From the NCBI GenBank assembly GCA_027485695.1, contig JAIXQO010000009.1, forward strand, positions 73,157 to 137,156: DNA of 64,000 nt, given 5' to 3'. The notes under the pieces were generated by a model. The model was given only the letters and a program-made list of their open reading frames with translations, had not been told where the DNA came from and searched no databases. Below, piece by piece: positions 12,592 to 31,233 of this stretch (positions are counted from its first letter, which is position 1; the number at the start of each line of letters is the position of its first letter). Source of the DNA: Pseudomonadota bacterium. GTDB lineage: Bacteria > Bdellovibrionota > UBA1018. The translations under genes were made by a program, and so were the position numbers.

Positions 12592-12717
12592 TCATTCGCT
12601 CACCGAGCAAGTTAGCCCAGGTACAATTCTCCTGTTGATTGCACGAGTTGTTGCACAAATTCTGGCATGCATCCTGAAAACTGGTGAGGAGATGCACCAG
12701 AGTTCTAGGAGGACACC

Positions 12718-12945
12718 ATGACTGAACCCGCGCATACCCCTACCCATCCCGATCGCAAGCGTCTCTTACCGAGAGACGACAACTGGAGTTTCGATGGAGA
12801 GTTCCATCGCTCGGCAAGTGAGCGCGAGTCCTCGCCGAACTTCGGTGTAGACACCTGGGGACCCAGAGCCACTTTTGATTTCCATTCCGTCACTGTAACA
12901 AACATCCGCAAGCGACACGGCCGTTCTCAAGAAATCTTGCAGTAA
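12718..12945 (+). CDS. Small hypothetical protein
   Basis: Strong RBS AGGAGG before the ATG. 75 aa. Confidence 0.5.
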   Translation: MTEPAHTPTHPDRKRLLPRDDNWSFDGEFHRSASERESSPNFGVDTWGPRATFDFHSVTVTNIRKRHGRSQEILQ

Positions 12946-13129
12946 GCGCGGGACTGCTTGGCGAATGGATCGCCTCGGATCCGCGCGACTGCCCCGTTTT
13001 GCCTGGCATGCAATCTGTAACGTCCTGGACTCAACGTCGCATGACTCTCAACGGGTGAATGAACTCTAGAACGTTCATGACCACCGAGACCTGCGCGCGT
13101 TCACTCAAAACCGAACCAGGAGAAAAATC

Positions 13130-13867
13130 ATGACTCATAATAATCGTTTCTCAAACTCTCATGACCGCAGAAAATCCCGCCCGTCGAATCGTCCGTTTGC
13201 GTCCCAGCAAGGCAATTTACACCGAGCCTCGATCGAAAATCATTCGTCCATTCCCGATCGAAACGACTATGAATCACGCCAATACGCAGCCGAGCCGCGA
13301 TTTTCGGATCATGACTACACTCGCGACTACAACCGTGATTCGAGTCGCAATGACGATCGAGACGCAGACACGAAATACAATATGAACGACTATGGGTCGA
13401 GCTACCTGCCTTCGAATTACGGACGCAATACCTCTGACTACGGTCACTGGACGAATCCAGATGATCGACGCCAGGAACAAAACCGCGAATCTAACTCTAG
13501 CGCCAGTCGCGCAAGTTTCGCAGGTCGCGGCCCCAAAGGCTACAAACGCGCCGACACCCGTATCGAAGAAGAAGTCTGCGATGCGCTCCTTCATGACCAC
13601 GTGATTGATGCCAGTGACATCGAAGTCACCGTCAAAGACGGCGTAGTGACGCTCTCCGGTCACGTACCAGAACGCCGCATGAAACGCCTCGCCGAAGACT
13701 GCGCCGAGCAGGTCTCGGGCGTCAATGACGTACTCAACGAACTACTGACGAAATCAGAGACGAGTTCAGATCAAACTCACAACTCGAATCTCGAGCGCGG
13801 CAAAATGGGAGCGATGAACTCGAGCCAAAAATCGAAAACGGGCACCCAGAGTTCAAACGTGATGTAA
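13130..13867 (+). CDS. BON-domain protein
   Basis: GRGPKGYKRADTRIEEEVCDALLHD..IDASDIEVTVKDGVVTLSGHV...AEQVSGVNDVLNEL. RBS AGGAG. Confidence 0.92.
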   Translation: MTHNNRFSNSHDRRKSRPSNRPFASQQGNLHRASIENHSSIPDRNDYESRQYAAEPRFSDHDYTRDYNRDSSRNDDRDADTKYNMNDYGSSYLPSNYGRNTSDYGHWTNPDDRRQEQNRESNSSASRASFAGRGPKGYKRADTRIEEEVCDALLHDHVIDASDIEVTVKDGVVTLSGHVPERRMKRLAEDCAEQVSGVNDVLNELLTKSETSSDQTHNSNLERGKMGAMNSSQKSKTGTQSSNVM

Positions 13868-13889
13868 GCCATTTCCCTCAAGGCTTACC

Positions 13890-13925
13890 GAGGGCTAGCT
13901 CGCGAGGCTGGCCCTCTGTTTTTTT
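13890..13925 (+). terminator. Rho-independent terminator
   Basis: GAGGGCTAGC-TCGCGAG-GCTGGCCCTC followed by TGTTTTTTT. Confidence 0.8.
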
Positions 13926-13951
13926 CACTGCTTTTTTTTACTCCTCTTTCA

Positions 13952-14848
13952 CTACTCTCGACGCTGTCCCTCCCAGAAGACGGGCAATAGACGCGGATAT
14001 CCCGCCTGCTCAAGCGCGCGCGTAATTTGGCTGTCGATTGCGAACTGACTTAAATTCTCCTCGCGCCCACCGACCAAAGTCATCGTGTAGACACGATTCT
14101 CATGTCCGTCTTGCAAAATGATCTGACGATCGATGCGCTCGATTTCGGTTACTCGGTAAAACTGATGATTCTTACCGCCGTACGGGTGGTGGATTTCGAG
14201 TCCGGATGATGAAAACCGCAAATAAGGAATAAACATCAAGTAGTAGAGGAACGCCGCAAACGCGATGTATCCCAAGATCAAGACGGCGATGATTTTTGAT
14301 TCGTGACGCTTGAAAAAACTCGTGTCCGCCAGCGCGAGCGCAATCTGCAACTCATGAGAATGTTGCGATCTCATTTTTAAGTGCGCGTCGTCGGCCCGTT
14401 TCACGTGACGACGATAGACTTCGGCGTAGATGCCTTTTTCGGCAATCTGAGTTTTTGACCACCAGTTGGCCAGGCCATACATGAGCGGGAGCGCGAATAT
14501 CAGAAGAAACGGCAGGCGAATCCATTCGTTCATCCGGATCACTACGCCAGATCCCGTCACCTCAAATCCGGGTGCGAGCGTGAACCATGTGACCCCTAGT
14601 AACGCCGTCGACAAGAGCGCCAAGATCCAGCGGTAGCGTCTGAGCTGACCCAAGAATCGCTCGAGCTCAGCCTGCGAGACCACTTCATCGAGTTCGGGAG
14701 CTGAGAGAGACGACTCCGGATCGGGCTGTGGTCCCCTCAATCGACGACCGGACCTCCAAGCGCCCAGGGCAAACGCGATTGTCGCCAAGACCAGACTCGT
14801 GAGGATGGGACGAGAAAAGTCAGACCAGGTAATTTTGGACAGAAACAT
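13952..14848 (-). CDS. Hypothetical membrane protein
   Basis: 298 aa with four hydrophobic segments. No recognised family. Confidence 0.75.
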   Translation of the reverse strand: MFLSKITWSDFSRPILTSLVLATIAFALGAWRSGRRLRGPQPDPESSLSAPELDEVVSQAELERFLGQLRRYRWILALLSTALLGVTWFTLAPGFEVTGSGVVIRMNEWIRLPFLLIFALPLMYGLANWWSKTQIAEKGIYAEVYRRHVKRADDAHLKMRSQHSHELQIALALADTSFFKRHESKIIAVLILGYIAFAAFLYYLMFIPYLRFSSSGLEIHHPYGGKNHQFYRVTEIERIDRQIILQDGHENRVYTMTLVGGREENLSQFAIDSQITRALEQAGYPRLLPVFWEGQRRE

Positions 14849-14955
14849 GACTTAAGCTTACTGGAAACCTGCCCACCTGCACGCGAAAATACTAGCGCGA
14901 GACGAGCCAGACTCATCAGAGCCATCACTCGTTCGTCTCATGATATGTGCTAGGA

Positions 14956-15822
14956 CTACTCAGGAATGGCGTTCTTGGGATCGTAGTCGCCCAGCTCATC
15001 CGGCAAGGACTCACAACGACGACGGTAGGTATCGGCGTCCGCAAGTTTTAACTGATCTTCGTCAAAAATGGCGAGTGCAAGTAGGTCCCCCAAGATCGCC
15101 GAAGACTCGACCACAAATCGATGCTTGTCTCCGCACCACCGAAACGCGATAGAGATTTCTTCAATGACGTCAGACTTACTCGATTTTTTGACCGAGTGCC
15201 GAAGCGGCCATTTCTGCTGAAAATAACCCCAGTAATCCAGACTGATTTGTGTGTTCCGTCCCACTCGAAACGACTTGGCCCAAACATAGAGTGCCAATTC
15301 GATTTCCTGTTTCGGGCGGCCGGAGATTTTAGCGATGTATCCAACGCGAGACGCAAGGACCTGCGGCAGGCCAGTTGCGGTAGGCGTTTTCTCCTGCTCT
15401 AGACTCCAGGCTCTGATTTCAGCAAGCAGGTTCACCACCCGCTTGAAATCCGGCTGAACGTCCCGGTGAGCAGAGACCGCACCCACGCCATATTTTGACA
15501 AGAAACGTTGATCAACCTGGAGGCTCGGAGCATTGCAAACATTCAACTGGCGGTGACACTGAACGAGCTCTTGAGGCAAGTTCTCGGGTTTGGGATGGCA
15601 GAACGCTTGGTAGATCGCCTGACATGCCTCTAACTCATTTCGATCGCGGTAGCGCTGAGCCTGCATATCGCCATAGTTGCGCTCGCGGATATACGATCCC
15701 CCCGGCTCGTAGGGCTCGCTGTTCTGCCCCCAACGTTTAGAACTCGATTCGGCGGCAGGCTTGACTTGAGCGTTGACCAGGCCAGTAACCAGAAGACAAA
15801 TGAGCATAACGACACGCATCAT
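14956..15822 (-). CDS. Hypothetical secreted protein
   Basis: Signal peptide MMRVVMLICLLVTGLVNA. 288 aa. Confidence 0.7.
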   Translation of the reverse strand: MMRVVMLICLLVTGLVNAQVKPAAESSSKRWGQNSEPYEPGGSYIRERNYGDMQAQRYRDRNELEACQAIYQAFCHPKPENLPQELVQCHRQLNVCNAPSLQVDQRFLSKYGVGAVSAHRDVQPDFKRVVNLLAEIRAWSLEQEKTPTATGLPQVLASRVGYIAKISGRPKQEIELALYVWAKSFRVGRNTQISLDYWGYFQQKWPLRHSVKKSSKSDVIEEISIAFRWCGDKHRFVVESSAILGDLLALAIFDEDQLKLADADTYRRRCESLPDELGDYDPKNAIPE

Positions 15823-15944: not shown

Positions 15945-16295
15945 GGGGACGTCATGGCTTCGACAGGAGTCTTGAAATTCTTGATGCAAGCCGAGGTGCT
16001 GGAGGCCTCGTAAATAACCAGCTGCTTATAGTTGCAAACGATAACTATGCAATGGCTGCTTAATATAAGCTAGCTACGTTCAACCTCAAGTGCCCCCGGT
16101 TGGGGATTGAACGTCATTTAGGGGGCTAGCGGTTCATCTCTCATTGGTGGGTGAATCGCGAAATAACTGCCAATGGTGTCTTGCAGTAGCCGGCTCACGG
16201 GGCGCCTGAAAGACAAACTAAACCTGAGAGCTAAGCTTGTAGAGTTGCGGATGGATGGCTTTTGGACGTGGGTTCGATTCCCACCGTCTCCACCA
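15945..16295 (+). ncRNA. ssrA: tmRNA; tag peptide ANDNYAMAA* at 16034-16063
   Basis: 5' GGGGACG pairs with 3' CGTCTCC-ACCA including the G3:U alanine determinant. T-arm GTGGG-TTCGATT-CCCAC. Tag reading frame is present. Confidence 0.98.
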
Positions 16296-16304
16296 TTTTT
16301 AGAT

Positions 16305-16350
16305 AAAAGCAAAAGGCTCTGGACCGAAAGGTTCAGGGCCTTTTGCTTTT
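16305..16350 (+). terminator. ssrA terminator
   Basis: AAAAGCAAAAGGC..GGACC-GAAA-GGTTC..GCCTTTTGCTTTT hairpin. Confidence 0.85.
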
Positions 16351-16361
16351 GTTTGGATTGC

Positions 16362-16524
16362 TGCAGGCGGCGGGAATCGAACCGTGCAGGATCGGCCGCG
16401 GGGAATCGCAAAGCGATTTCGCGCGGAGAGGCGCACACGATGTGCGACTCAGATCCGGAACCCGCGACGGAGCTTTTCGCGTGAAGCGAAAAGCGCGAGG
16501 AGTCGATTCCCACCGTCTCCACCA
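16362..16524. repeat. Structured repeat bounded by inverted copies of the tmRNA 3' end
   Basis: Left arm TGCAGGCGGCGGGAATCGA (16362-16380) is 16/19 complementary to the right arm. The right arm 16503-16524 is an exact 22-nt copy of tmRNA 16274-16295. Three internal hairpins. Confidence 0.9.
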
Positions 16525-16529
16525 CTTTA

Positions 16530-16574
16530 AAAACAAAAACCCTCGGACCGAAAGGTTCGGGGGTTTTTGTTTTT
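16530..16574 (+). terminator. Second copy of the ssrA-type terminator
   Basis: AAAACAAAAACCCTCGGACC-GAAA-GGTTCGGGGGTTTTTGTTTT. Same GGACCGAAAGGTTC core as 16321-16334. Confidence 0.8.
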
Positions 16575-16576
16575 GG

Positions 16577-16622
16577 GGTGTTGATACCGAGGGAATCGAA
16601 CCGTGCAGGATCGGCTGCGGGG
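16577..16622. repeat. Second inverted T-arm copy plus truncated linker
   Basis: GGGAATCGAACCGTGCAGGATCGGC is identical to 16372-16396. Similarity stops at 16622. Confidence 0.85.
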
Positions 16623-16641
16623 GTTAAATTCTCTGAATCGA

Positions 16642-16663
16642 TGTGCAACGAATGTGCGGTTAC
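16642..16663 (+). repeat. 22-nt direct repeat, left flank of cargo gene
   Basis: TGTGCAACGAATGTGCGGTTAC versus TGTGCAACGAATGCGCGGTTAC at 17645-17666 (21/22). Confidence 0.85.
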
Positions 16664-16733
16664 ACGAAACACTTTAGCATATGCCTTGGTTCGAAAACTT
16701 TAGCTTGCGCCCGATTCATTATAAAGTTTGAGC

Positions 16734-17639
16734 ATGGGGACTTGGGGAACTCAAATAACGGAAAACGACACTTTCGCCGACGTTTATTCGACGTACTTTG
16801 ACTATTATGACGATGGTCTCGACGAAAGCATCCTCGTAAAGCAACTCGATCGTGATTTTCAGGAAGTATTAGACCACCCCGGTGACGCCCATAACTTCTG
16901 GTTCGCCGTCGCGGCCGCGCAATGGGAGTGTGGGCAACTCCGCTCTAATACACTGGAAAAAGTACAAAAGATTATCGAATCTGATGAACATCTCGCGAAC
17001 TGGAAAGATCTAGGAGCGTCATCTGACGAGCTTGAGGACAGGAAGTCCGCTTTATCGAATTTTCTCAGTAAGCTTCAGTCTAAAAATAGCCGCCCCCGTA
17101 AGCGAAAGAAGAAAACACTTTACGATTCCGTCTTCAAAAAAGGTGATTGTCTCGCATATCGAATGGCTGGTGGAAGATTTGGAGGTCTTTTCGTTTTAGA
17201 AGAAGAGCAAGCAACAAAGACTGGTTACAATTTAGTTGCATTGACTACGATAGAGAAGGAATCCGCACCTACGATTGATGACTTCAAAACCGCCTATGTC
17301 TTCGTTCAGCGTATAAAACAACACTTTGATGTAAACCTAGAGGGACAAAAGCTTTCAAGCAGTCGAGAGGTATGGAGAGAGCGCCCTTTAGTTGGCTGGG
17401 CAGGCGTAAGCACATTCACGCCTAAAGAAATTGAAATACAAAAGGTCGGAACTCTTCCGGTTAATAAAAATTATTCCTCTCAGTATCACGACTTCATGCA
17501 TATGAGATGGGATAGCTTCCTTTCTGCTCTTGCCGAGCGACAAATTAATAGCACTTCAAACCCTAAAACGAAGCTTAGAGACTGGAGATTGAATAAGAGA
17601 TGGCGTTCATTGGCCGATTGGTTTGGTTTAAAGCGCTGA
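16734..17639 (+). CDS. DUF4259-like N-terminus hypothetical protein (AT-rich cargo gene)
   Basis: MGTWGTQITENDTFADV...FWFAVAAAQWECG N-terminus. Visibly AT-richer than secA. Confidence 0.8.
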   Translation: MGTWGTQITENDTFADVYSTYFDYYDDGLDESILVKQLDRDFQEVLDHPGDAHNFWFAVAAAQWECGQLRSNTLEKVQKIIESDEHLANWKDLGASSDELEDRKSALSNFLSKLQSKNSRPRKRKKKTLYDSVFKKGDCLAYRMAGGRFGGLFVLEEEQATKTGYNLVALTTIEKESAPTIDDFKTAYVFVQRIKQHFDVNLEGQKLSSSREVWRERPLVGWAGVSTFTPKEIEIQKVGTLPVNKNYSSQYHDFMHMRWDSFLSALAERQINSTSNPKTKLRDWRLNKRWRSLADWFGLKR

Positions 17640-17644
17640 ATTGC

Positions 17645-17772
17645 TGTGCAACGAATGCGCGGTTACCTGTTCAGCGTGCCGAGTGGGCATAAATAAAGTC
17701 GCAACTACTCGCGATTGAAGAAGCTGGAGAGTCCCTGGACGGGCGTACGAACGCTCGAACAGGAATTATATG
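17645..17772. repeat. Right-flank direct repeat starting an imperfect attC-like hairpin
   Basis: CCTGTTC-AGCGT (17666-17677) pairs with ACGCTCGAACAGG (17751-17763) with one bulged base. Confidence 0.5.
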
Positions 17773-17800
17773 TGCGAAGACTTCATTTACTCTACTTGGA

Positions 17801-17856
17801 GCGAAAGGTTCGGCGCATTTTGTTTTTATGGTGTTGATACTGAGGGAATCGAACCG
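17801..17856. repeat. Eroded terminator plus inverted T-arm copy
   Basis: GGTGTTGATACTGAGGGAATCGAACCG (17830-17856) matches 16577-16603 at 26/27. Preceded by CGAAAGGTTCGG. Confidence 0.85.
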
Positions 17857-17963
17857 CGCTAGGTCACGCTTGATGCCACTTTGAATCCCCCAGCCAGGCT
17901 ATGATCAAAATCTGTCGCTCCCAATCCCCTCGGTCGAATTGCCCCCTTACCCATCAAAATGCA

Positions 17964-17980
17964 TTGGATGCAAAATTGCA
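17964..17980 (+). promoter_or_regulatory. Possible sigma-54-like -24/-12 element
   Basis: TTGGATGCAAAATTGCA has GG-N10-GC spacing and lies upstream of the host-attachment gene. Confidence 0.35.
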
Positions 17981-18051
17981 GGTCTTTGATAGGCGAGTCT
18001 TATTTATTGAAACCGTTCTGAGCTTTAGAGACCAAACAGGAGGTACATACG

Positions 18052-18489
18052 ATGAACTCGAAATTAACCTGGTTACTAGTAGCCCAAAGAGCGGAAGCAC
18101 GGGTGTACGAAATTGAAAACTCTAAATCCCTGAAACTCATTCACGACTTCGACCACCCAAGCGGACGAAAGAAAGATCATGAACTGGGATCCGATAGCCC
18201 AGGCCGGAGCTTTAGCTCCGCTGGCTCCAGTCGCCATAGTTACACCCAGGAAAACGGGCCGTCTGACCAAATTACCATCGAATTTTCAAAGGAGATTGCC
18301 AATTTTCTCGAAAAGGCGCGAAGTGAAAATCGATTTGAAGCACTCATGATTATCTCGGGACCGAGCTTTCTAGGGAACTTACGAAATGACATGACCTCAG
18401 ATACTCGTGATCTCGTCACTTCAGAAATAAGTAAAAACTTAGGCGGTTTTTCTGCGCACGAACTCAACGATTACATTAATAAAAACTGA
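18052..18489 (+). CDS. Host attachment protein (AtsE/baeRF12-like) family
   Basis: TWLLVAQRAEARVY...SDSPGRSFSS...FSKEIANFLEKAR..FEALMIISGPSFLGNLR. RBS AGGAGG. Confidence 0.88.
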   Translation: MNSKLTWLLVAQRAEARVYEIENSKSLKLIHDFDHPSGRKKDHELGSDSPGRSFSSAGSSRHSYTQENGPSDQITIEFSKEIANFLEKARSENRFEALMIISGPSFLGNLRNDMTSDTRDLVTSEISKNLGGFSAHELNDYINKN

Positions 18490-18540
18490 ATGATGTTTTC
18501 AATCGTGCCTCAAAGGAATTTGAGAATTCGACACAGGTTT

Positions 18541-18660
18541 AGGAATCGCAAAGCAAATTCGCGCCGAGAGGCGCATACGATGTGCGACTCAGATCCAGAA
18601 CCCGCGACTGAACTTTTGCCGGGAAGGCAAAGGCGTATGGATTAGATTCACGGCGTCCCA
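18541..18660. repeat. Second copy of the structured linker
   Basis: Colinear with 16401-16520, including GAATCGCAAAGC, CGATGTGCGACTCAGATCC and AACCCGCGAC. Ends in a degenerate tmRNA-end-like sequence. Confidence 0.9.
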
Positions 18661-18769
18661 ATTATTCACACAATATTCTATCCATTCAATTCCTTAGAAC
18701 GTTTCTGTTATTGGCTTTTTTGCGTGATACGATAGGGCTCTTGGGACTTTCTAAAGACTAGGAGTTTGA

Positions 18770-18865
18770 ATGGGTTTCAAAATTAAGGAGTTCGCAACGG
18801 TACGCCTGATTTCAAAAGACGTAGCGAAGAGTCGTGATTGGCTACGAATCTCCACTCTAAATTAG
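18770..18865 (+). pseudogene. Truncated N-terminal fragment of a VOC/glyoxalase-like gene
   Basis: RBS AGGAG plus MGFKIKEFATVRLISKDVAKSRDW, then an early stop. Confidence 0.45.
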
Positions 18866-19061
18866 AGCTTTTGGAAACTGCCCCAATTCAATAACTTCTT
18901 CAGTAATCAAATCTCAGCTCGCGTTGCTTAAACAAAGCTCTTAAACTCGTACCGAGATACGAATCCAAACAGAAGCTCCATTAATCGCCTTCTGCGAAAT
19001 GGTACCTACCAACCACGATCTATACCCTAGCCACAACCCCCCCCTCAGGTACCATCAAATC

Positions 19062-20150
19062 ATGCAGCTCTCCCGAACCCGCGCTTACTATGATCGAAAC
19101 CGAAGATGGATCCCCCCCGCGTTCTTCATTTTAGGCTTCGTCTTCGACGCCGTAACGCTCCAGCGCATCGACGAACTCTGGACCATCCTCCAGCAGGCTG
19201 CCTACCTCATCATCGTAGCTAGCCTGACTGGACTTGAGATCGTCGAATCGGCGCGCGAAGTACAGCCTCATCGTTTCATTCGCAAAATTTGGCAGTATCG
19301 CGAGGCGGCGATCCCGTTTTTTCTAGGCGCACTCTTAAACTGCTACGCGCTGTTCTTTTTTAAGAGTGCATCGTCGCTGACTTCTTTCGTCTTCATCACG
19401 GTCATCGGGATGCTTCTAGTCCTTCAGGAATTCAAGAAATTCGGAGCCGCTCAGACGCGGATTCACATGGCACTCCTGGGCCTCTGCCTGATTTCTTTTT
19501 TCGAGGTACTCTCCCCCATACTTTTCGGCTCAATCGGAATCATCCCGTTCGTCTGCGGAATGGTGGCCTCACTCGGCGTATCTGCCCTCTACTACCGCGT
19601 GATCCTCAAGTGGCTCAACGTCGATGCCGTGCACGCGCGCTCACAAATGGCGCTCCCATTCCTCGTCGTCCACGGGCTTTTTGCCGCTTTGTACTTCGGT
19701 AACGCCATCCCACCCGTTCCGCTCTCGGTGACGTACATGGGAATCTACCACGACGTTCGTAAGATCGATGAAAAGTATGAGCTCAGTTACGAGCGCTCAC
19801 CGCTTCAGTTCTGGCAGAATGGAGACCAGACTTTTCGCGCCCGTCCAGGCGACGTCATCCACTGTTATGTCCAGATTTTCGCGCCCACCGGATTTACGGA
19901 GCAACTACAAGTCCGTTGGCTCTATCGCGACAGCCTCAGAGGCTGGAAGCCCGCCGACGGCATCTCGATGAATATTACTGGCGGACGAGACGGCGGTTTT
20001 CGTTTCGTTACGAAGAAAACCAACTACGAGCCTGGCGACTGGCGCGTACTCATCGAAACCCACGATGGTCGCGAGGTGGGATGGATCAGCCTAACGGTGG
20101 AGCCCGACGACTCCGTAGGCGAGCGAGCACTCACCACCGTTTCCCGCTGA
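19062..20150 (+). CDS. DUF2914-type membrane protein
   Basis: About seven TM segments, then IHCYVQIFAPTGFTEQLQVRW...ITGGRDGGFRFVTKKTNYEPGDWRVLIETHDGREVG. Confidence 0.85.
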   Translation: MQLSRTRAYYDRNRRWIPPAFFILGFVFDAVTLQRIDELWTILQQAAYLIIVASLTGLEIVESAREVQPHRFIRKIWQYREAAIPFFLGALLNCYALFFFKSASSLTSFVFITVIGMLLVLQEFKKFGAAQTRIHMALLGLCLISFFEVLSPILFGSIGIIPFVCGMVASLGVSALYYRVILKWLNVDAVHARSQMALPFLVVHGLFAALYFGNAIPPVPLSVTYMGIYHDVRKIDEKYELSYERSPLQFWQNGDQTFRARPGDVIHCYVQIFAPTGFTEQLQVRWLYRDSLRGWKPADGISMNITGGRDGGFRFVTKKTNYEPGDWRVLIETHDGREVGWISLTVEPDDSVGERALTTVSR

Positions 20151-20248
20151 TAGCTATTCAAACGATTCGTTCCCCCCCCTAGGCTCAGCACTCAAGCGTC
20201 ATAAAACAGACTGCGCGATCTCTACGCAGTTGATGTAAAATAAAAGGA

Positions 20249-21175
20249 ATGAAAAACGCTCTGAGGCGACAGAATCGATCTCTGCTCGCTGGACTGCTCT
20301 CGATTACTCTTCTGATCGCTCCGGCTCCAGGCTTTGCTCAAGATCCCAATCTCGACCCAACGGGGTGTGGCGCACTGATCGGCAAGATTGACCCCAATCC
20401 CCAAGATCGACTCGTCACCGAAGACGGAACCGTGATCCACCTCCGCGTAGAGGGCCAAACTCCAGCGCGAAAACGATTCAAAAACGAGGGAAAAGCCTTT
20501 GAAGAGGCCGGCCCAGACGACCTCGTCACTATCGAATGGTTTTATCACCCGTTCACGCCCTACAGCGGTACCAATGGATTTCGCATCGGACAAAAGATGT
20601 ACGCCTACGGCCAAGACGGTTGGAAAATTCACGAAGGAGACGGGGACGATGCTCGTGCGTATGTTTTCGCAAATAATTGGTTCAAAGGCTTGTATCTTCG
20701 CTACAGAAACATCGGAATGCCTCCGTTTTCTGTAGGGATCCCATTCCAAGTACCGAAATCAAAAGCGCTCGCCGCCGATAAATTGGTTCGTGACCGTATC
20801 GAGAGTCCCGGCCCTCCGTTTTCTATCCTCTTCAATAATTGCAGTCAGTGCGCCGTAGAGGTTTTTGCTGCGGCCGAACTTGCGAAATTCAACGGCGGCG
20901 CTTACGAAGCATTCTCTTCGTTTGCGAGCACGAGAGCCGTGTTGCTCCAAAACATGGGCTCAGGCGCTGTGATCTATCCTTTGACGGGATTCAATTTTTC
21001 TGTCCCAGAGCTTTTGCACATGTTTCCGCCGGGTCTCTACGGACCCATTACTCTACCCGAGGTGAAACGAGACGTCCGAATCACGGCCGAGCATATTTTG
21101 GGATCACTCTACGGCAAGTTCAAAAGACTCACGGGGCTTCAAATTCCAGCAAATTGGCGATTTAAGAGGAATTAA
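20249..21175 (+). CDS. Hypothetical secreted protein
   Basis: Signal peptide ending PGFA. Contains [11 protein letters not shown]. Confidence 0.75.
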
Positions 21176-21299
21176 TGCTCGCGCTGCGCTTCTTACCCCA
21201 AGCGCACATGGCATCTAAAATCGGCCTCAAACTTTTTCCAGAATCCGTGACTGAGTATTCTACACGAGGCGGGATTTCAGCAAACGCCAACCTCGAGGC

Positions 21300-21926
21300 T
21301 TACTGTTCGACACAATAGAGTCGATTGGTGTTGTCATCGCAATTGGCGGTACCGGAATTGATCGCTCCATCGTGATCGACCGATGTGTTTCCCAAAGTGC
21401 CATTATCGCCACCATTGTTACTGGACCACTGATTGCAATGATTAGTGCCATCAGTGGTCCAGTCATTGGCAAAGCCAGTCCATGTCGTTTGGAAGCCAGT
21501 CCCGATACTTTGGGACAAAGCGAATGCAAAGATTCCGCTAGAATTGGTCGTTCCGATTACGGTTCCGTCGACTCGGGTATACTGAGTATTGGCGGCTAAA
21601 ACCCAATCAGTGTGTTCAGCGCTACCGCCACTACAATTTGGCGTGGTGCAAGCGACTCTCAATGTGCCTTCTGTAATGAGTGCTTTTGCGGTGGTGATCC
21701 CTTCAGCAGCAGCCTGACCTTGACAGATTGCATCTGCACCAAGAATTCCGTTCGCTGCAGCACCAATTGAGAGAAGGTCGCCGCTATTGACCGCAGTGCT
21801 CAAGAACATTTTCTTAATGGGAGTAGTGGTAGTTGCGGTAGGAGCTGCACTCGATGATCCACTCGATCCACACCCTAAGAGGCTTAGGGAAGCCAGGCCA
21901 CATACCACAGTCAAAATGTGATTCAT
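21300..21926 (-). CDS. DUF1554 (endostatin-like) domain lipoprotein
   Basis: Lipobox SLLGC, Ser/Thr linker, GADAICQ...RVAC...DWVLAANTQYTR...NHCNQWSS...LYCVEQ. Confidence 0.85.
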   Translation of the reverse strand: MNHILTVVCGLASLSLLGCGSSGSSSAAPTATTTTPIKKMFLSTAVNSGDLLSIGAAANGILGADAICQGQAAAEGITTAKALITEGTLRVACTTPNCSGGSAEHTDWVLAANTQYTRVDGTVIGTTNSSGIFAFALSQSIGTGFQTTWTGFANDWTTDGTNHCNQWSSNNGGDNGTLGNTSVDHDGAINSGTANCDDNTNRLYCVEQ

Positions 21927-22187
21927 TATTTTCCCCTCGCCTGAATACAATCGTAAGCTCCACTCCGGGAGTTTGCCAAAGAAAATTCCTACTCCGATTG
22001 ACACCCGTATATTACTTCAAAGTAAAAAGTTTATTACAAAGGAACCGCAACATGATCGCCGCTTCGGGTGTAGTAACGTTTGCCATGGTCAGACAGTTCG
22101 CAATTGGTATGATGAGACGATGAATCGCGCTCGGGCGATTCGTTCACCCGCTCCCAACGTATCTATTGACGAAGATCGGAGAAATGC

Positions 22188-22562
22188 ATGTTTGATCACC
22201 TGGGTTTTGATGTCAGAGATCTAAAAATCAGCAAGGCATTCTATGAATCCGCACTAGCTCCACTCGGTGTACGATTGCTCGCCTATTCCGAGGACTGGCA
22301 AGCAGCGGGATTCGGTACGGATCGTCCACGTTTTTGGATCGCAAAAGGGGATCCTACGAATGGCGACGACGAACTCCATGTTTGTTTTTCAGCGAAATCG
22401 CGTGCCGAAGTTCGAGCCTTCTATGAGGCTGCCCTAAAATCTGGCGGCCGAGACCACGGCCAACCCGGCCTCAGACCGCAGTATCATGAGAACTACTACG
22501 GTGCATTTATCCTCGATCCTGACGGACACAATATCGAGGCGTGCTGTCATCTGCCTGAGTAG
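22188..22562 (+). CDS. VOC/glyoxalase family protein
   Basis: MFDHLGFDVRDL...HVCFSAKSRAEVRAFY...NYYGAFILDPDGHNIEA. Confidence 0.93.
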   Translation: MFDHLGFDVRDLKISKAFYESALAPLGVRLLAYSEDWQAAGFGTDRPRFWIAKGDPTNGDDELHVCFSAKSRAEVRAFYEAALKSGGRDHGQPGLRPQYHENYYGAFILDPDGHNIEACCHLPE

Positions 22563-22565
22563 CTC

Positions 22566-22886
22566 ATGGCAAAACTTAGAAAAGCACTCGTCAAAAAACT
22601 AGAGCGTATTCCAGGCCTGAAAGACCAACCCTCGCCTGTCGCAGGTGGATCGGCGATCTTCTATCGAGACCAAGAAATCGCTCACTTTCACCATGACCAT
22701 GAGATCGACGTACGCCTGACGAAAAAACTCATTCGCCAAGAGGGCCTGAAACACCCAAAAGACTCCGAGCAACACCGAAATCGATCTCCTCAATCCGATT
22801 GGATAGAATTGCGATTTGAAACCTCAAAAGAAGTCGACGAGGTCGTCAGACTATTTCGGCTATTCGTAGAGCTCTCCGGCAACTGA
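22566..22886 (+). CDS. DUF5519/luciferase-like family protein
   Basis: FYRDQEIAHFHHDHEIDVRLT motif. Confidence 0.75.
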   Translation: MAKLRKALVKKLERIPGLKDQPSPVAGGSAIFYRDQEIAHFHHDHEIDVRLTKKLIRQEGLKHPKDSEQHRNRSPQSDWIELRFETSKEVDEVVRLFRLFVELSGN

Positions 22887-22989
22887 GCCCGATTCCCAAA
22901 TCAATACCTAGACAAGCTCATCGAACTTCACCGAACACTTCTTTCGGCGAAGTATTGACTTGTCGCGGCGCACTATGGAATCTTGCGCC

Positions 22990-23829
22990 ATGCCCGCAGA
23001 GATCACCTATCGCAACATCCTTCAAGAAGAGCTAGAGAAGCGTCTTCGGAGAAATCCACAGTATTCACTCCGATCTTTCGCCAAAGACTTAGGAGTTTCA
23101 AACGCTCTGCTGTCGGACGTACTCCGCGGCAAGTGTGGTCTGTCATTAAAACGAGCGATTACGATCTCCGATCGTCTCGGCATGTCTCATCAAAGGAAGG
23201 AATGGTTTTGTTCCTCAGTCGAATCTCTTCATGCACGCTCTCAGGGCAGGAAAACCATCGCGCTGGCTCGCCTTAAAAAACTCATTGAAAGCAAAGCGAG
23301 CAATGTACGAATGAAATCGCTCAGCCACGAGGAGTTCTCCGTCGTTTCGGAATGGTATGCATTTGCCATTCTCGAGTTAATGAAAATGAAAGAGGCACCC
23401 GCAGATCCTCGATGGTTTGCGCGGCGACTCAATATTTCTGACTATCTCGCGAAATCAGCAATCGAGCGTTTCACCAAAATGAATGTCATCGAGATGAGAA
23501 ATGGTCGCTGGCACGTACTATCTGAGGTCATTGAAACTCCGGTTAACTTCTCGGGCGAAGCCATTCGACATCACCACGACCAATTCCTGCAGCTCAGCAT
23601 TCAAGCCCTCTACAGTCAGCCCAAAGAAGAACGGGATTTCCGCGGCTTAACGATCAAATGCAACAAATCTTCGATCGAATCCGTACGCAGTCGCCTGAAA
23701 CAATTCCTGATCGAACTCGACTTGGAACTGTCGCAGGACCCGGAAGCGGATCACGTTTATCGCCTCTCCACCCAGTTCTTTCGCCTCACAGACGAGAAAT
23801 TTTCATTCCAAAATAACCCCATCAAGTAA
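22990..23829 (+). CDS. TIGR02147-family protein (HTH + DUF4423-type domain)
   Basis: RNPQYSLRSFAKDLGVS..LSDVLRGK..LS; VSEWYAFAILEL; IRHHHDQFLQLSIQAL..Q..EERDF; VYRLSTQFFRLT. Confidence 0.9.
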   Translation: MPAEITYRNILQEELEKRLRRNPQYSLRSFAKDLGVSNALLSDVLRGKCGLSLKRAITISDRLGMSHQRKEWFCSSVESLHARSQGRKTIALARLKKLIESKASNVRMKSLSHEEFSVVSEWYAFAILELMKMKEAPADPRWFARRLNISDYLAKSAIERFTKMNVIEMRNGRWHVLSEVIETPVNFSGEAIRHHHDQFLQLSIQALYSQPKEERDFRGLTIKCNKSSIESVRSRLKQFLIELDLELSQDPEADHVYRLSTQFFRLTDEKFSFQNNPIK

Positions 23830-23831
23830 GG

Positions 23832-24830
23832 ATGTCCCCCATGATTCACCTCAAATACTCGACGCTACTCAGTCTCATCACATTAAGCATTCTCAACCCC
23901 CATTTGGCTCATGCCCAGCTATTCACCTCTGATCTCGCACCAAGCGCATTAAAAGAGGGTGGCCACAGCAACAACGGTGGCGATCCTTTTGAACTAGCGG
24001 AACTGACTGGAAAAAATGGATCACGCCTGAGTTCTTGGTACTCAGTAAAAATGGACTTGATTCAAGGACTAGAGATGGGTCGCCATCACTCCATTAACCT
24101 CTATGAATGGACTCCGGAAACTTTCAAAGAAAAGCTGCTCTACTCACTAAAATCGACGGCCGTGGAATTTCGTCATGAGTGGATCCAAGTGAACGGTGTC
24201 GACCGGCCCTGCAAGAACTATCGAATTGGAGAAAAAAACTACCGTATTCAGTGCAACCCCGCTCAGTATCTGCCAGCAACGGAAAAGCTCTCCATCGAAG
24301 AACATGTGAAATTTATCGCCCACGAGTACATGTCCGCAGCAGAACTCGAACCGAACCGGTACGGCCTATCGGACTTCCGCTTCAGTGAACAAATTTCAAG
24401 AAACCTCGAACAAGTCACCGTCCGTCGTTGGGCGACTGCTACACCTCCTTCGACCACACCCGTGCCCGAATATTGTCAAACGGTCCCCGTCTTAAAACAA
24501 ATATTTCGAATTCTATTTGATAGTGCCGGGGTCGACGAAACAAAATTAGAAGTCCCCTTTGATCAAATGGGCATTTTTCGAGCAGCTTTGACCCCCTATA
24601 TGATTTTTGATGGCAAAGCTAACTTACGCATTTCACAAATCGACTGGTCAAAAGAGAATCAGATCCACTTCCTCTACTCTTACTGCTCTCAAGGAAATGA
24701 CCGCTATGTTGGCCGCCTTACAGCCTATGGGAACGAACGCGTATGCTTACGTCGCGTCGAAACTGAGGTGGTCTCTCGATGCACGAAAGTTCCTCCCAAG
24801 ACCGATCGCAGATCTAGAGGGCGATCATAA
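23832..24830 (+). CDS. Secreted protein with GGHSNNGGD motif
   Basis: Signal peptide ending AHA. KEGGHSNNGGDPFE and FIAHEYMS motifs. Abuts the TIGR02147 gene. Confidence 0.8.
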   Translation: MSPMIHLKYSTLLSLITLSILNPHLAHAQLFTSDLAPSALKEGGHSNNGGDPFELAELTGKNGSRLSSWYSVKMDLIQGLEMGRHHSINLYEWTPETFKEKLLYSLKSTAVEFRHEWIQVNGVDRPCKNYRIGEKNYRIQCNPAQYLPATEKLSIEEHVKFIAHEYMSAAELEPNRYGLSDFRFSEQISRNLEQVTVRRWATATPPSTTPVPEYCQTVPVLKQIFRILFDSAGVDETKLEVPFDQMGIFRAALTPYMIFDGKANLRISQIDWSKENQIHFLYSYCSQGNDRYVGRLTAYGNERVCLRRVETEVVSRCTKVPPKTDRRSRGRS

Positions 24831-24890
24831 ATAGCTCAAACTCTCAGGAAAATCCCAAAACCGAGCAGGACCTGACTTCTTACATCCGTA

Positions 24891-24946
24891 TCAAAAGAAA
24901 AAGCTTCGGACCGCCCGGTTCGGAGCTTTTTCTTTTGATGGTGTTG
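24891..24946. terminator. Terminator hairpin related to the ssrA trailer repeat
   Basis: TCAAAAGAAAAAGCT-TCGGACCG...GGTTCGG-AGCTTTTTCTTTTGA followed by TGGTGTTG, as at 17829. Confidence 0.75.
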
Positions 24947-25192
24947 CACTCCTGAACTGAAATATATTGTTATCCATTGCTCACCATCATGATGGCGCGT
25001 CAATTTCTTACCGCGGCACCTTGCGCGAAAATCTCAAAGAACAAAAAACGTACGCTGAGGCTAGTTTGGCAAACCAACTCCGCTTTGATGACATCATCAA
25101 GATTCGATTCGTTCTGGAGCGGTGCTCACCCCATGACAAGCGATTAGTTCAATTCCATACGATTTGCGAGATTCGCCCTGTATCATAAAAAT

Positions 25193-26110
25193 ATGCATCT
25201 TATTTTGCTTCTTGGATGGTTTTTCTCTGGCAGTGTCGCAATTGCTGACCTCGGCGATCCGGGAAAGGTCGCCTGGACTACCGTTACTTTCAAGGACGGT
25301 CAAGTTCACGAAGGGCTCACTTTTGTAGTAGAGGCCGCTTATGATCCGAAGGATTCCAAAATGGGAATCCTCCTCGTGAATAACGATGGCGCACGAAAAG
25401 ATGTCCCGTTCGTCATCAACGATAAAGAACTCAGAGTCGAATTTGACTGGAAAAAACTTAAAGACGCCGTGGTGTACGCGCGAGTGTTGACGAATGCTAC
25501 GCCTACCCTCGCGTTAACCTCTCGCTACAAAAATCGCTGCCAGCCGAATGAGGTCCGAGAAATTCCATTGCGAGATATTCGGTCGATTCATTGGCAATAT
25601 AAAATTTCCTCGTCCCACCATAAAAAGATTCTGAAAGAGTTTTCGGAGTCCGAGAACTTCAAAGATTGTCCGATTGCAAGTTGCTTCATTGGCGGAGATG
25701 GAGATTGCCGAGTTACCTTCACTCCCGGGACTCTGCCAAAAGACAAAGTAAAAGACGCACTTGAACTCTACTACCAAGCGGAGTCCGGAACTTGGGAGGA
25801 TTACCATGAAGTCGAAACATTTCAGGCAAAATTTCAGAACTTTCCGCAGGGCGCAGAATACAATCGAGTCAAGTCGCTCATCGAGCGCAGCCACGCGGTC
25901 ATGAAAAAGATAGAGCCCACTTGTACGACCATACCTGAGTCTGAGCGTGACGATTGCTGGTGGAAGCTTTCGGCGCAGATTCGGACGGAGGTAGAGGCCT
26001 CGATGAAGCCTTTCCTGGAAAAATGGCAAGTAAAATTGATCTCTTCAGATCCTTTTAGAGTCGAGGATCGTCTTCTTCCGGCCATCGAGATCAACGAGGG
26101 ACACCGATAA
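25193..26110 (+). CDS. Hypothetical secreted protein
   Basis: Signal peptide MHLILLLGWFFSGSVAIA. 305 aa. Confidence 0.75.
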   Translation: MHLILLLGWFFSGSVAIADLGDPGKVAWTTVTFKDGQVHEGLTFVVEAAYDPKDSKMGILLVNNDGARKDVPFVINDKELRVEFDWKKLKDAVVYARVLTNATPTLALTSRYKNRCQPNEVREIPLRDIRSIHWQYKISSSHHKKILKEFSESENFKDCPIASCFIGGDGDCRVTFTPGTLPKDKVKDALELYYQAESGTWEDYHEVETFQAKFQNFPQGAEYNRVKSLIERSHAVMKKIEPTCTTIPESERDDCWWKLSAQIRTEVEASMKPFLEKWQVKLISSDPFRVEDRLLPAIEINEGHR

Positions 26111-26204
26111 TAGCGTTGAATAGTGCTCCTTGTTTCAATACTGACCCAAGCACTTCCCTATTTTTCCGCGGACATCCTTCAAACTCTCACTCAGATACTA
26201 GCCC

Positions 26205-26255
26205 GACCGGTTCGGAGCTTTCTTTTTGATCAAGCTGATACAGTGGGAATCGAAC
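26205..26255. repeat. Eroded terminator half plus inverted T-arm copy
   Basis: GACCGGTTCGGAGCTTTCTTTTTGAT...CTGATACAGTGGGAATCGAAC. Shares sequence with both 24916-24939 and 16581-16601. Confidence 0.75.
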
Positions 26256-26269
26256 GCTTCAGTATTTAT

Positions 26270-26308: not shown

Positions 26309-29300
26309 ATGAGCCAAAATTTGTCTATTTTGAGAAGCCGGTCCCAAATCGTGATTTTCTTAGTCACAGCGCTTTCACTTTTAGGTCTTATCGCATTTTT
26401 AGTCATGCCACGAGAAGAAGACCCTCGCATTAAAAGACGAAATGCCATTACGACCGTCGTCCTTCCCGGCGCGGCCCCAGAAAAACTCCTTCGGACAGTG
26501 GTAAGACCCATCGAGGACAAACTACTAACCGTCCAAGAGTTAAAAAAGGTTGAAGTCGAGATTCGCCCAGACGTCGCGGTTTTTCAGCTCGAACTGCGCG
26601 ATGGTGTCCGGGATATTCCCGATGCTTGGCGTGAAGTAGAAAGAGCGCTCGATCGTGCCGCGCCCGACATCCCGAATTCATTGCCCGTTCCCGTGCTTGA
26701 CTTCTCAGTGATCGACGTAGAAGCGCTCGTCCTCGCAGTCACTGGATCAGATGATCGGGTCTTGTTAACAGACGCCGCACTTCGACTAAAAGACCGTCTC
26801 GCTCGCGACCCCGACGTAGCGGAGATAAAACTATTTGGTGAGCCAGGCTTGGAAGTTTTGGTCTCAGTAGACTCTCCTCGCCTACACTCACTCGGAATAC
26901 CGATCGAGCGGTTGCTCAGCGCAGTTGCTACGAACAACTCTGCACGCTCGACGGGTTTTTCGATCATCAGTGGTTCGCGAGTTCCGCTCCAACAAGATAA
27001 TGACGCAGTTTCGGTGGAATCATTGAAACAGATCCGTCTCGAGACCGGTCGCCTCATCACGCCAGCTCTAGAAAGTTACGCGTCCGTCTCGCGCGTTTCT
27101 TCCACTCCCGCTCGCGCACTTTTTAGATGGAACGGCAAGAGTGCGATCGGACTTGGCGTCATTCCGCGTTCAGGGATCAACATTGTCTCCTTCGGCGATC
27201 GATTCCTGAAAGAAGTCCGTGAATCCCAAGTAGAAATCGCTCCGTTAAACGTAGAGGTCGTCGCATTTCAACCCGAGCGCACTCGAACCCGAATCAATGA
27301 TCTACTCATTTCGCTGCTCGCTGGGGTTGGCCTGATGGCGGCATTCCTGGGCGCAACGGCAGGCGCAGCATTTGCTGCGATCGTCAGCGTGAGCGTCCCG
27401 ATCATCACGTTGGTTAGTCTATTTTTCTACTACATTACCGGAGGCGTACTTCATCAAATATCGATTGCGGCATTCGTCATCTCAATCGGACAGTTCATCG
27501 ATAACGTCGTGGTGGTAATCGACTCAATACAGACGCGACTGCGAAATGGCGAAAACCCAGAACAGGCCGCGAGCGCAGTTTCTGAGGAACTCCGCTTGCC
27601 GATGGCATACGCGACACTAACCGGGATCTGTGCTTTTTTGCCGATGCTCTCCGCCCAAGGTTCGCCGGCAGATTTTGTTTTCTCACTCCCCCTGGTCGCG
27701 GTGATCTCGCTGGTGTCGAGCTATTTTGTGGCCGTCTGGTTTGTCCCTCTGTTGGGCAGGCGTCTGATTCGGCCGGATTCTCGGCCCTGGCTCGAACTTC
27801 CTTTCGGGCAATTGCAGCGACTATTCACTTCGGTTGCCGAGGGCCCCCCTTGGCGTATCGCAGTTCTGGTCACAGCCATCACCGTCGCGAGCTTACTGAG
27901 CGCTTTATTTATTGAAAAAGAGTTTTTCCCAGAGTCCGATCGTAACGAATTCATTTTAGCCGTCGAACTCCCCCCCGGTTCCGATATCACGAGTACAGAT
28001 CGCGTTCTACGAACCGTAGAGAGCTACCTCAGCAAAGATCCGCGGGCCACTCTGGTCGCTACGTTTGCAGGCGGAGGCATACCTCGTTTTTACTATAATA
28101 TTCCGAATCCTCGTCGCGCACCGGAAATGGGACAAATCCTCATTTCAACACGAAGCCCCAAAGACGTGAAACCGCTGGGTTTGCATTTAGAAGAAACACT
28201 TGCTCATGATTATCTGGGTATTCGATTTACAGCACAGTTCCTACAACAAGGCCCGCCCATTAATGCGAAGGTCGAATTGAACTTTTTTTCCGAAGAACCA
28301 TCCCGAAGAGAGGAATTAAATCAACGCTTGTCGGAAATCATCACCCAGGAGCCTGGAGTTCGTTCGGTTCGCCCTGACGACCAAAAAGGGATGCAACGTT
28401 TTAGTTTCGTTTCCCGCGACGAAGCACTTGCAAATTTAGGGTTAGATCGTAACAACTTGAACTCAATTTTAGCCTTTTACTCCTCTGGAGTGACAGTCTC
28501 CGAATTTAGACGAGACCGAGAGATTATACCGGTTGTTGTCCGGGATCGGTCTGGCCTCACTCGATCACTTGACGATACCCTCAAACAAATTGCAATCCGA
28601 GGACGGGATCATGACTTTAAAGTCGGCGAGCTGGTCAAAGCATCCGTCGAACTAGAATCGTCTATTTTGCGCAGGAAAAACGGCCAGACTTTTACTCGAT
28701 TGCGCGCTGATCTACAGCCAGAACACACTTTCGATCGCGTCTTAAAAAAGATCCGACCAAAACTAGATGGAATCAAACTCAAGAACAAAGAGAGGATCGA
28801 ATTCGGGGGCGATGCTCAAGGCTCTGCCGAAGCAAACGCCTCAATCCTAAAAGTCGTGCCGACTGCCATGACGCTTTTGATTCTCTTTCTCCTTCTTCAA
28901 TTTCGGTCCTACCGAAAAGTAATGATCGTGGCGCTGGCGATACCCGTGACAATCATGGGTGTTTTCCCAGGTCTGTGGTTGAGCGGTCAGCCTTTTGGAT
29001 TCATGTCACTACTTGGAGTGCTAGCGCTCGTGGGCATCGCAGTGAACAATATCATTCTGCTACTTGAGGCAGTTGAAACAGAAGGATCAGTAGGCGCGGC
29101 CGTTAGGACGCGCTTTCGAGCGATATTTCTCACAACACTTCTCACGCTGCTCGGCCTCATACCGCTTGCACTCGAAGACTCCCCCCTTTGGCCGCCACTG
29201 GCCTGGACCATGATATCAGGATTGATCACCGGAACGATTGCGACATTGATCGTTGTGCCTGGGCTGTATCGGGTTTTCTTTCGTACATCGGCTACCGAAA

Positions 29301-30604: not shown

Positions 30605-31233
30605 AGAAATCAACAAAGGGCCCAAAGCGCGAGATCGGGCTGCGCGAACGCTTGATAACAGTGGCCCTCCGCGAAATCAAACGCCAAGGCGCTCACGGCA
30701 TGACCCTACGAGGAGTTGCAAAACTTGCCGGATGCACCCCGATGGCGACCTATCGCTATTTTGATTCAAAAGAAGCACTTCTAGCCGAAATAGCAAGAGA
30801 AGGGTTTATTCATCTACGCACGGAGATGCTCGAAGCGACTACTCGATCGAACCTCACCCCTCTTGAGCAAATCGAGGCCGCCGGAAACCGTTATATTCGC
30901 ATGGCCCTCGAGCGCCCGGCCCACCTACTCATGATGTTCGGTGGATTTATTGGAGACCCTGATGATTTCCCAGAAATGAAAGCTGCCGGAGAATCGACAT
31001 TTTTTACGCTCGTAGAAATGATGAACGCCGGCCAGCGCGAAAAACTGCTCCCTAAATGTGACCCGATCCAGCAGGCGGTAGCAGCCTGGTCCATCGTGCA
31101 CGGGTTTTCGATGTTGATCATCAATGGGAATTTGGAATTCTTAGGGATCAACCTCGACAACTCCAAGGAACACGCGCGTTTCGTTGCACGTTCCGTAATC
31201 GATGGTCTACGCGCATGCACGAATTTTAAGTAA
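30601..31233 (+). CDS. TetR/AcrR-family regulator
   Basis: MTLRGVAKLAGCTPMATYRYFDSKEALL and AAWSIVHGF. 4-nt overlap with the RND stop. Confidence 0.93.
   Translation: MKKSTKGPKREIGLRERLITVALREIKRQGAHGMTLRGVAKLAGCTPMATYRYFDSKEALLAEIAREGFIHLRTEMLEATTRSNLTPLEQIEAAGNRYIRMALERPAHLLMMFGGFIGDPDDFPEMKAAGESTFFTLVEMMNAGQREKLLPKCDPIQQAVAAWSIVHGFSMLIINGNLEFLGINLDNSKEHARFVARSVIDGLRACTNFK

Follow-up and report, generated by a model that had tools for sequence, protein, structure and literature searches.

A tmRNA-anchored array of small repeat units without a recombinase gene in a Bdellovibrionota genome, and related units behind tRNA genes

The repeat array behind ssrA

The stretch considered here (the window) comprises 64,000 nt of contig JAIXQO010000009.1 (assembly GCA_027485695.1, positions 73,157 to 137,156, forward strand) from a Pseudomonadota bacterium that GTDB places in the Bdellovibrionota lineage UBA1018; the subject is the row of small repeats and accessory genes that follows its tmRNA gene, ssrA. 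The gene lies at 15945-16295 on the plus strand (ARAGORN and Rfam, 206.5 bits), encodes the tag ANDNYAMAA and is the only tmRNA gene of the 64 kb. Its final 22 nt, from the T-loop to the CCA end, TCGATTCCCACCGTCTCCACCA, form the repeat core (core0, 16274-16295). An exact repeat search finds a second, identical copy (core1) at 16503-16524, where 0 are expected in shuffled sequence, and a third, degenerate copy of the ssrA 3' end is present at ~18640-18660. The original prediction, made from the letters alone, described eroded pieces of the ssrA trailer interleaved with cargo genes and read them as serial gene capture; it overlooked the exact 22-nt duplicate, which is the most telling of the repeats.

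One period of the repeat has five parts: core, terminator hairpin, 5' arm, a linker of three hairpins (H1-H3) and core again. T-loop and T-stem recur in exact reverse complement as the conserved portion of the 5' arm, GGGAATCGAACC. ssrA is now served by T1, a bidirectional terminator hairpin at 16305-16350 on the plus strand (inverted-repeat and terminator analysis), behind which lies unit a (16358-16524, plus strand), an intact, cargo-free and non-coding copy that sits between the two exact cores and, taken as a complete module, comes to ~229 bp. The 5' arm of unit a (16359-16383) is 84% complementary to 16271-16295, its 3' arm is core1, and its H1-H3 are what the original prediction called the linker. 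Unit a is recognized by repeat comparison, by a fold z of -6 and by a score of 134.6 bits with R1, a covariance model built from the units; R1 has only three matches in the 64 kb, the others being 18507-18664 (89.5 bits) and 17830-17901 (17 bits). Against Rfam 15 only ssrA scores above threshold in the window; the best match of the unit is a sub-threshold one to tmRNA_permuted (16265-16380, 28.5 bits against a threshold of 47), which arises because the piece after the ssrA 3' end resembles a tmRNA 5' end (GGCGGCG..GGAATCGA). The 5' arm of unit a is ambiguous between a 3' end in inverted orientation and a 5' end in direct orientation. Neither a second, reduced tmRNA nor an intermediate of permutation was retained as a reading of the unit, since the match is only sub-threshold and the unit is not similar to the ssrA body.

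The period then recurs in less complete form, on the plus strand throughout. Terminator T2 (16530-16575) and 5' arm b (16577-16622), recognized by repeat comparison over 16530-16622, are interpreted as the left end of the insertion of ORF303, an open reading frame (ORF) at 16734-17639. This cargo B (16622-17666) is bracketed by 42-nt direct repeats, 16622-16663 and 17625-17666, which are 83% identical. The second repeat overlaps the stop codon of ORF303; the first abuts the 5' arm directly and resembles the leftover 3' end of an ORF, TGA included, like the tail of a lost paralogue. The pair could be a second junction type or a partial tandem duplication. Unit c begins with a terminator remnant, T3, and 5' arm c (17829-17869), which together span 17795-17869 (86% identical to 16542-16606; R1 partial match 17830-17901), and it ends with H1-H3 and a degenerate 3' arm, TAGATTCACGGCGTCCC, at 18541-18660 (R1 89.5 bits; 82-86% identical to unit a); between its 5' arm and H1 sits cargo C, ORF145 (18052-18489), assigned by Pfam to Host_attach / baeRF family 12. 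Beyond unit c lie the seven genes of block D on mixed strands (18999-24830; ORF and Pfam calls), terminator T4 with a truncated arm, GGTGTTG (24890-24946), cargo E (24967-26110), made up of ORF73 (24967-25188) and ORF305 (25193-26110), neither with a Pfam domain, and half of a terminator, T5, with 5' arm e, GATACAGTGGGAATCGAAC (26203-26255; repeats, exact motif and blastn), directly upstream of an RND pump gene. In the ORF303 module and the two distal ones (24890-24946 and 26203-26255) only terminator and arm remain. The pump gene itself (26309-30604) is a single 1431-aa ORF in which an AcrB-type RND transporter (ACR_tran, 11-990) is fused to an outer-membrane factor (OEP, 1051-1223), an unusual arrangement, and it is followed by a TetR gene at 30601-31233.

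When each piece is compared with the whole window by low-stringency blastn, the pairs have E values of 1e-5 to 1e-29. The segment 17795-17859 is 86% identical to 16542-16606 (E 1e-16), with 26 of 27 positions matching between 17830-17856 and 16577-16603; identity is 82-86% between 18542-18657 and 16402-16517 (E 1e-26 to 1e-29), 78% between 24893-24946 and 16530-16583 (E 1e-8), and 70-75% between 26203-26262 and copies 2 and 3 (E 1e-4 to 1e-5). Every copy is on one strand and between real ORFs, and none was found in the 64 kb beyond 16.2-26.3 kb; the motif GGGAATCGAAC has exact sites in the window at 16272 (minus strand, within ssrA), 16372, 16591, 17844 and 26245 and at no others. The trailer pieces listed in the original prediction are all present where it placed them, in one orientation, and the reverse complement of 17829-17855 does read as the tRNA 3'-end mimic it gave. 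The decay with distance from ssrA that it described is not monotonic: the ssrA-adjacent copy (16267-16403) is 77% identical to copy 2, and copies 2 and 3 are 86% alike. The ordering it proposed, with the oldest insertions furthest out, is at most loosely consistent with the data.

That similar terminators recur here by chance or convergence is refuted by blastn, the exact core repeat and the R1 scan: ordinary terminator hairpins are present in the copies, but the similarity runs past them into the arms and the linker (E down to 1e-29), no further copies exist in the 64 kb, and motif, blastn and R1 scans agree that within the window the repeats are not scattered generic terminators.

The genes between the repeats are, as the original prediction had it, unrelated accessory genes; they are miscellaneous, and they look foreign by GC content and by the distant relatives of ORF303. 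The 17-19 kb segment has 44-45% GC compared with ~50-55% in the flanks, and ORF303 has 87 homologues at ~40% identity, the few with a named source being mostly Bacteroidota. Block D, 6 kb long, reads in order DUF2914, an unknown, a DUF1554/LenA-like gene (the one gene on the minus strand), glyoxalase, luciferase-like, TIGR02147/DUF4423 and a second unknown. PADLOC gave no match for any cargo protein. No recombinase Pfam domain occurs in any ORF of at least 95 aa in the whole window, in keeping with the earlier statement that none is encoded there; tblastn of the window with the recombinase of a Bacteriovoracaceae locus (L004, described below) returned nothing past the ssrA overlap and no recombinase pseudogene, and the intergenic spaces of the region are too small for a recombinase gene.

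Relatives and units behind tRNA genes

The lineage is rare in public data, and the nearest assembled relative (L123) shares an ssrA gene of 90% identity with the same tag, a neighbouring protein of 62% identity and gene order upstream of ssrA. Alignment of the two ssrA-downstream regions, the check put forward with the original prediction, places the breakpoint exactly at the ssrA 3' end (window 16295); downstream of it the relative has another terminator, YcaO-type genes, a single core and no modules. A second indel relative to L123 lies upstream of ssrA at ~12600-14960, where a BON-domain gene (13130-13867) and a 298-aa ORF (13952-14848) stand between genes that are adjacent in L123.

Closer sequence comes from a sister species in two biofilm metagenomes (X5 and X6), at a depth of only ~3x. 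Identity to the window is 85-92% in the flanking genes, and in ssrA 2 of 285 positions differ; in the X5 contig the terminator, arm and linker follow ssrA contiguously. Across 16372-16473 the identity to X5 is ~98%, the only listed differences, A16435G and T16443C, being a compensatory pair in H2. At 16348-16371 the outer 24 nt of the 5' arm are replaced in X5 (11 substitutions and 3 deleted bases) by a variant that resembles copies 2 and 3; the patch is hypervariable, with conserved sequence on either side, namely the terminator and the inner arm. At ~3x depth there is no X5/X6 match on ORF303, ORF145, ORF305 (cargo E) or the pump. Block D is partly shared with the sister species and is therefore considered older.

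The source runs of the window (X1-X4) contain two or three more contigs of similar depth with linker-like pieces, which touch 16411-16452 and 16462-16503 with 80-90% matches to H2 and H3; one of them runs on into TCGAATCCTCTTTAGGCCGG, a different tRNA-like end. Source-run contigs ending in ...GGAGTTCGAATCCTCTTTAGGCCGG hint at units behind other tRNA genes; the same community therefore has additional units at other genes, perhaps within the same genome.

A scan of JGI metagenomes with the H2 hairpin recovered five loci, L124-L128, at which the same unit stands behind tRNA genes. In L126 and L125 a trailer, an arm, H1-H3 and the tRNA-Leu 3' end, copied exactly, come in this order behind a tRNA-Leu(GAG) gene; the arm, GAGGGACTCGAAC, is the reverse complement of the T-loop of that tRNA, GTTCGAGTCCCTC, and a second unit comes next, with a 190-nt insert between H1 and H2. 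The arms of L124, L127 and L128 match GTTCGACTCCTGTCGGGATCGCCA, which, as a contig from another lake run shows, is how a tRNA-Arg(UCU) gene ends; three tandem units are present in L128. Both arms thus match the local gene at three targets (ssrA, tRNA-Leu and tRNA-Arg), and cargo-free units, often in tandem, are found at tRNA-Leu and tRNA-Arg genes in lake metagenomes; words of the L128 units are present in more than 20 freshwater and lake runs. Accessory genes also occur near these units: an AbiEi/AbiEii toxin-antitoxin pair lies at 2065-3429 of L127, right after a unit with a truncated 3' arm, and a ParA-like gene lies upstream of the same locus in L124.

Across the loci the middle hairpin, H2, is near-invariant (GCGCGGAGAGGCGCRCACGAYGYGCGACTCAG); H1 and H3 stay hairpins with unrelated sequences, and the H3 loops are GNRA-like. 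An alignment of six units has a consensus of 35 pairs with 89% of cells paired. Compensatory changes fall in 13 pairs, compared with 6.3 +/- 1.6 in shuffles (0 of 500 reached this value) and 0-7 after sliding of the partners. Exceptions of the G-U and of the A-C kind are similarly frequent and no strand preference is seen; because the two are balanced, an RNA structure and a DNA structure are indistinguishable here.

The negative searches delimit the family. An inverted T-loop within 300 nt was found in 0 of 117 genomes of other phyla with the same ssrA 3' end, and R1 has no match in 92 control ssrA loci; the scan with the ssrA 3' end returned mostly Bacillaceae, which served as the control set, and also gave L004. 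Rfam found only tRNA-Leu in L124-L128. Linker and arm patterns matched nothing in IMG/VR viral contigs, and nothing relevant came from plasmid and phage collections; JGI metagenomes contained no match to the tmRNA tag pattern, and a contig scan with the 288-aa protein encoded upstream was likewise negative. No described equivalent of the unit was found in the literature.

Trans-moved miniature modules and the alternatives

The explanation that accounts best for the array, with a probability of about one half, is serial accretion of miniature recombinase-less integrative modules that would be moved in trans. At least five small modules would be stacked in the 10 kb behind ssrA, each inserted by site-specific recombination within the T-loop. 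From its proximal end a module would contribute a new 3' end for ssrA, then a terminator and an arm reverse-complementary to the T-loop and T-stem; at its distal end the three hairpins would precede the ssrA 3'-end copy that was displaced, and any cargo would lie between arm and hairpins. An insertion would thus read ssrA body, core, terminator, arm, (cargo), hairpins, core and then older material, an order that fits every copy in the window as well as L126. Unit a would be a complete, cargo-free module and unit c one that carries ORF145, with the ORF303 module and the two distal ones reduced to terminator and arm. The modules would belong to a family that is also present behind tRNA-Leu(GAG) and tRNA-Arg(UCU), with both arms re-matched to the local gene. 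A recombinase encoded elsewhere would move them, and the inverted arm and hairpins would form part of the attachment site, possibly as a folded strand; excision and integration joints would be expected at TCGATTCCC.

A core duplicate that starts in the T-loop, a terminator supplied by the element and a synteny break at the gene end are the standard signature of integration at tRNA and tmRNA genes. The signature of site-specific integration is also given in the Islander description (PMC4383910). The lack of a recombinase, the cargo-free unit at three genes and the near-identity across species together argue for a minimal non-autonomous module rather than a random scar. The core-to-arm spacing varies from 64 to 107 bp across loci, for which reason a protein bridge of fixed phase between core and arm was dropped; a hairpin with the terminator at its tip fits the varying spacing better. 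By analogy with attC or CTX-type elements, the attachment site may possibly be a folded strand. Two other proposals were rejected: the 5' arm is not a fragment of a convergent minus-strand tRNA gene, as no tRNA is present and the arm tracks the T-loop at three genes, and no ends, guide geometry or enzymes match a Tn7/CAST homing guide, an IS110 bridge RNA or a retron. Of the serial, site-specific capture first proposed, the insertion hotspot on the ssrA 3' end is supported, through the core duplicate and the L123 break; the integron-like cassette mechanics are at present an analogy, given the multi-gene block D with its minus-strand gene and the failure to find circles or alternative joints.

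Several observations weigh against accretion of trans-moved modules. Three of the five window modules have no right end, and their status as modules is deduced from terminator and arm; X5 matches the last gene of block D as far as 24831, 60 nt short of the module 4 repeat; and the sole homologue of ORF305 (in L129) has no such modules around it. Cargo has no fixed nucleotide position: it precedes H1 in the window and follows it in L126. The evidence for a family comes from about four independent lineages, and no locus offers a recombinase that could be connected with the unit. A circle of ~229 bp of double-stranded DNA would be an awkward recombination substrate, and the excised circles and rearranged joints suggested for checking were sought in the source runs (~5x Logan contigs), where no circle, empty site or alternative joint was found.

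A more ordinary origin, held to be doubtful, is that the array is what remains of conventional ssrA islands or prophages whose integrases were deleted, with att scars and a handful of genes left behind. Such decay is consistent with the exact core duplicate and the synteny break; tandem ssrA islands are on record, about half of those of Dehalococcoides lacking integration modules (PMC3146451), the route from decay through a cis-mobilizable element to accretion is documented (PMC5704250), and a large serine recombinase abuts ssrA in the Bacteriovoracaceae metagenome-assembled genome (MAG) of L004. Random loss, however, should not recreate a cargo-free unit of ~170-230 bp at three genes in several lineages, and neither compensatory conservation of the hairpins nor ~98% identity of the unit where genes differ by ~10% is expected of scars; the missing recombinase pseudogene and the small intergenic spaces also speak against it.

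It is about equally doubtful that the unit is a gene for a structured non-coding RNA with its own terminator, which takes its closing stem from the 3' end of its neighbour and multiplies by unequal crossing-over, the cargo having been inserted later into dead copies. The strong fold (z about -6), the covarying stems, the GNRA-like H3 loops and the near-invariant H2 would suit an RNA, as would the terminator hairpin that follows every unit, the prevalence of cargo-free units, the three in tandem in L128 and a unit more conserved than the neighbouring proteins. Such a gene would nonetheless leave unexplained why one hairpin core stands behind three genes with both arms re-matched, and why synteny breaks at the ssrA end; no promoter-like site in plus orientation precedes any unit, each starting right after the preceding terminator, Rfam gives no match, the equal G-U and A-C exceptions show no strand preference, and no RNA evidence was obtained.

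A bolder form of the capture idea is put forward tentatively: the unit may be the attachment site of undescribed recombinase-less cassettes, with arms copied from or selected to match the local T-loop and a folded form recognized in trans, so that tRNA and tmRNA genes would act as integron-like capture platforms in freshwater bacteria. A true integron, in which the unit would be an attC-like site folded as a single strand and served by an IntI-like enzyme with ssrA as attI, is distinctly improbable. The arms do have attC polarity, with ...ATCGAAC, a variable structured centre and G(T)TCGAT... resembling RYYYAAC ... GTTRRRY; structure is better conserved than sequence, and cargo-free cassettes and single-orientation arrays are both seen. 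The window, however, holds no intI, attI or Pc promoter and no tyrosine recombinase, the ORFs are placed within the unit and not between successive units, block D holds several genes, one of them on the minus strand, and the crossover core is a 22-nt gene end, not a 7-nt core site.

Known systems and implications

An accretion array anchored at ssrA is of a known kind; the conserved, target-matched, structured and recombinase-less junction unit looks new. The closest counterpart is the tandem ssrA islands of Dehalococcoides, which have ~20-bp repeats of the ssrA 3' end and of which 15 of 31 lack an integration module and are read as cis-mobilizable (McMurdie et al. 2011, PMC3146451). Like the present array, they are described there as serial insertions 3' of ssrA with accessory cargo and direct repeats of the ssrA end near ssrA; they are 10-30 kb long, many with the DsiB serine recombinase over attL, whereas the modules here measure 0.2-6 kb and have none. 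The inverted T-loop arm and the conserved hairpins find no mention in the consulted passages of that report. A large serine recombinase of DsiB type, reverse-stranded over the ssrA 3' end, is absent from the window. A DsiB-like layout does occur in L004, from an uncultured Bacteriovoracaceae MAG, where a minus-strand gene at 1622-2830, whose product has Recombinase and Zn_ribbon_recom domains, extends over the ssrA 3' end (1697-1721). A further att-flanked insert of very small size follows ssrA in Peribacillus huizhouensis (L008), a member of a different phylum, in which two exact 25-nt copies of the ssrA 3' end (2583-2607 and 3693-3717) lie 1.1 kb apart.

Cis-mobilizable elements are flanked by att sites, have lost their integration and transfer genes and occupy the 3' end of a target gene in tandem, where a neighbour's integrase can mobilize them (Pavlovic 2004 and Bellanger 2011, reviewed in PMC5704250). 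Unit a has this form, lying between attL/attR-like cores without integration or transfer genes. Cis-mobilizable elements are, however, regarded as decay products of integrative and conjugative or integrative and mobilizable elements and have no common structure, whereas the unit here is conserved, minimal, structured and present at different genes; no parent element of the modules was found. In the tycheposons of Prochlorococcus, serial integration pushes older elements outward (bioRxiv 10.1101/2020.12.28.424599). As here, a tycheposon or Islander-type island (PMC4383910) restores the split gene and a displaced fragment marks its far end; partial tRNAs are scattered within such islands. Set against the Islander-type definition, the window has the displaced 3' fragment and, on the side of the relative, the break at the gene end, and has no integrase inside the island; tycheposons and Islander elements carry integrases, and a target-matched inverted arm and a shared hairpin core are not part of their definition.

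With integron attC and CTX-type sites the unit shares recombinase-less cassettes in one orientation, an imperfect palindrome of conserved structure and the existence of cargo-free cassettes. It differs in that no link to IntI or Xer was found, the anchor is the end of a tRNA or tmRNA gene, and ORFs lie inside the unit; single-strand folding is here a proposal. The units also fall outside the definition of miniature inverted-repeat transposable elements (MITEs), since they are flanked by a repeat of the 22-nt end of the gene itself and the copies in the window are confined to the ssrA tail, although inverted arms exist.

Gene gain proceeds to a large extent through tandem islands at tRNA and tmRNA genes, and to our knowledge the elements studied so far at these genes carry their own integrase. 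The array described here points to a conserved, enzyme-less junction module of ~170-230 bp that recurs at different genes with target-matched arms. If this is correct, there would be a parasitic or cooperative layer of non-autonomous integrative elements, comparable to MITEs among transposons and to cassettes in integrons, and the R1 model would provide a signature of sequence and structure with which the modules and their recombinase could be found; if the unit is instead an RNA, it would represent an uncatalogued family tied to tRNA and tmRNA genes.

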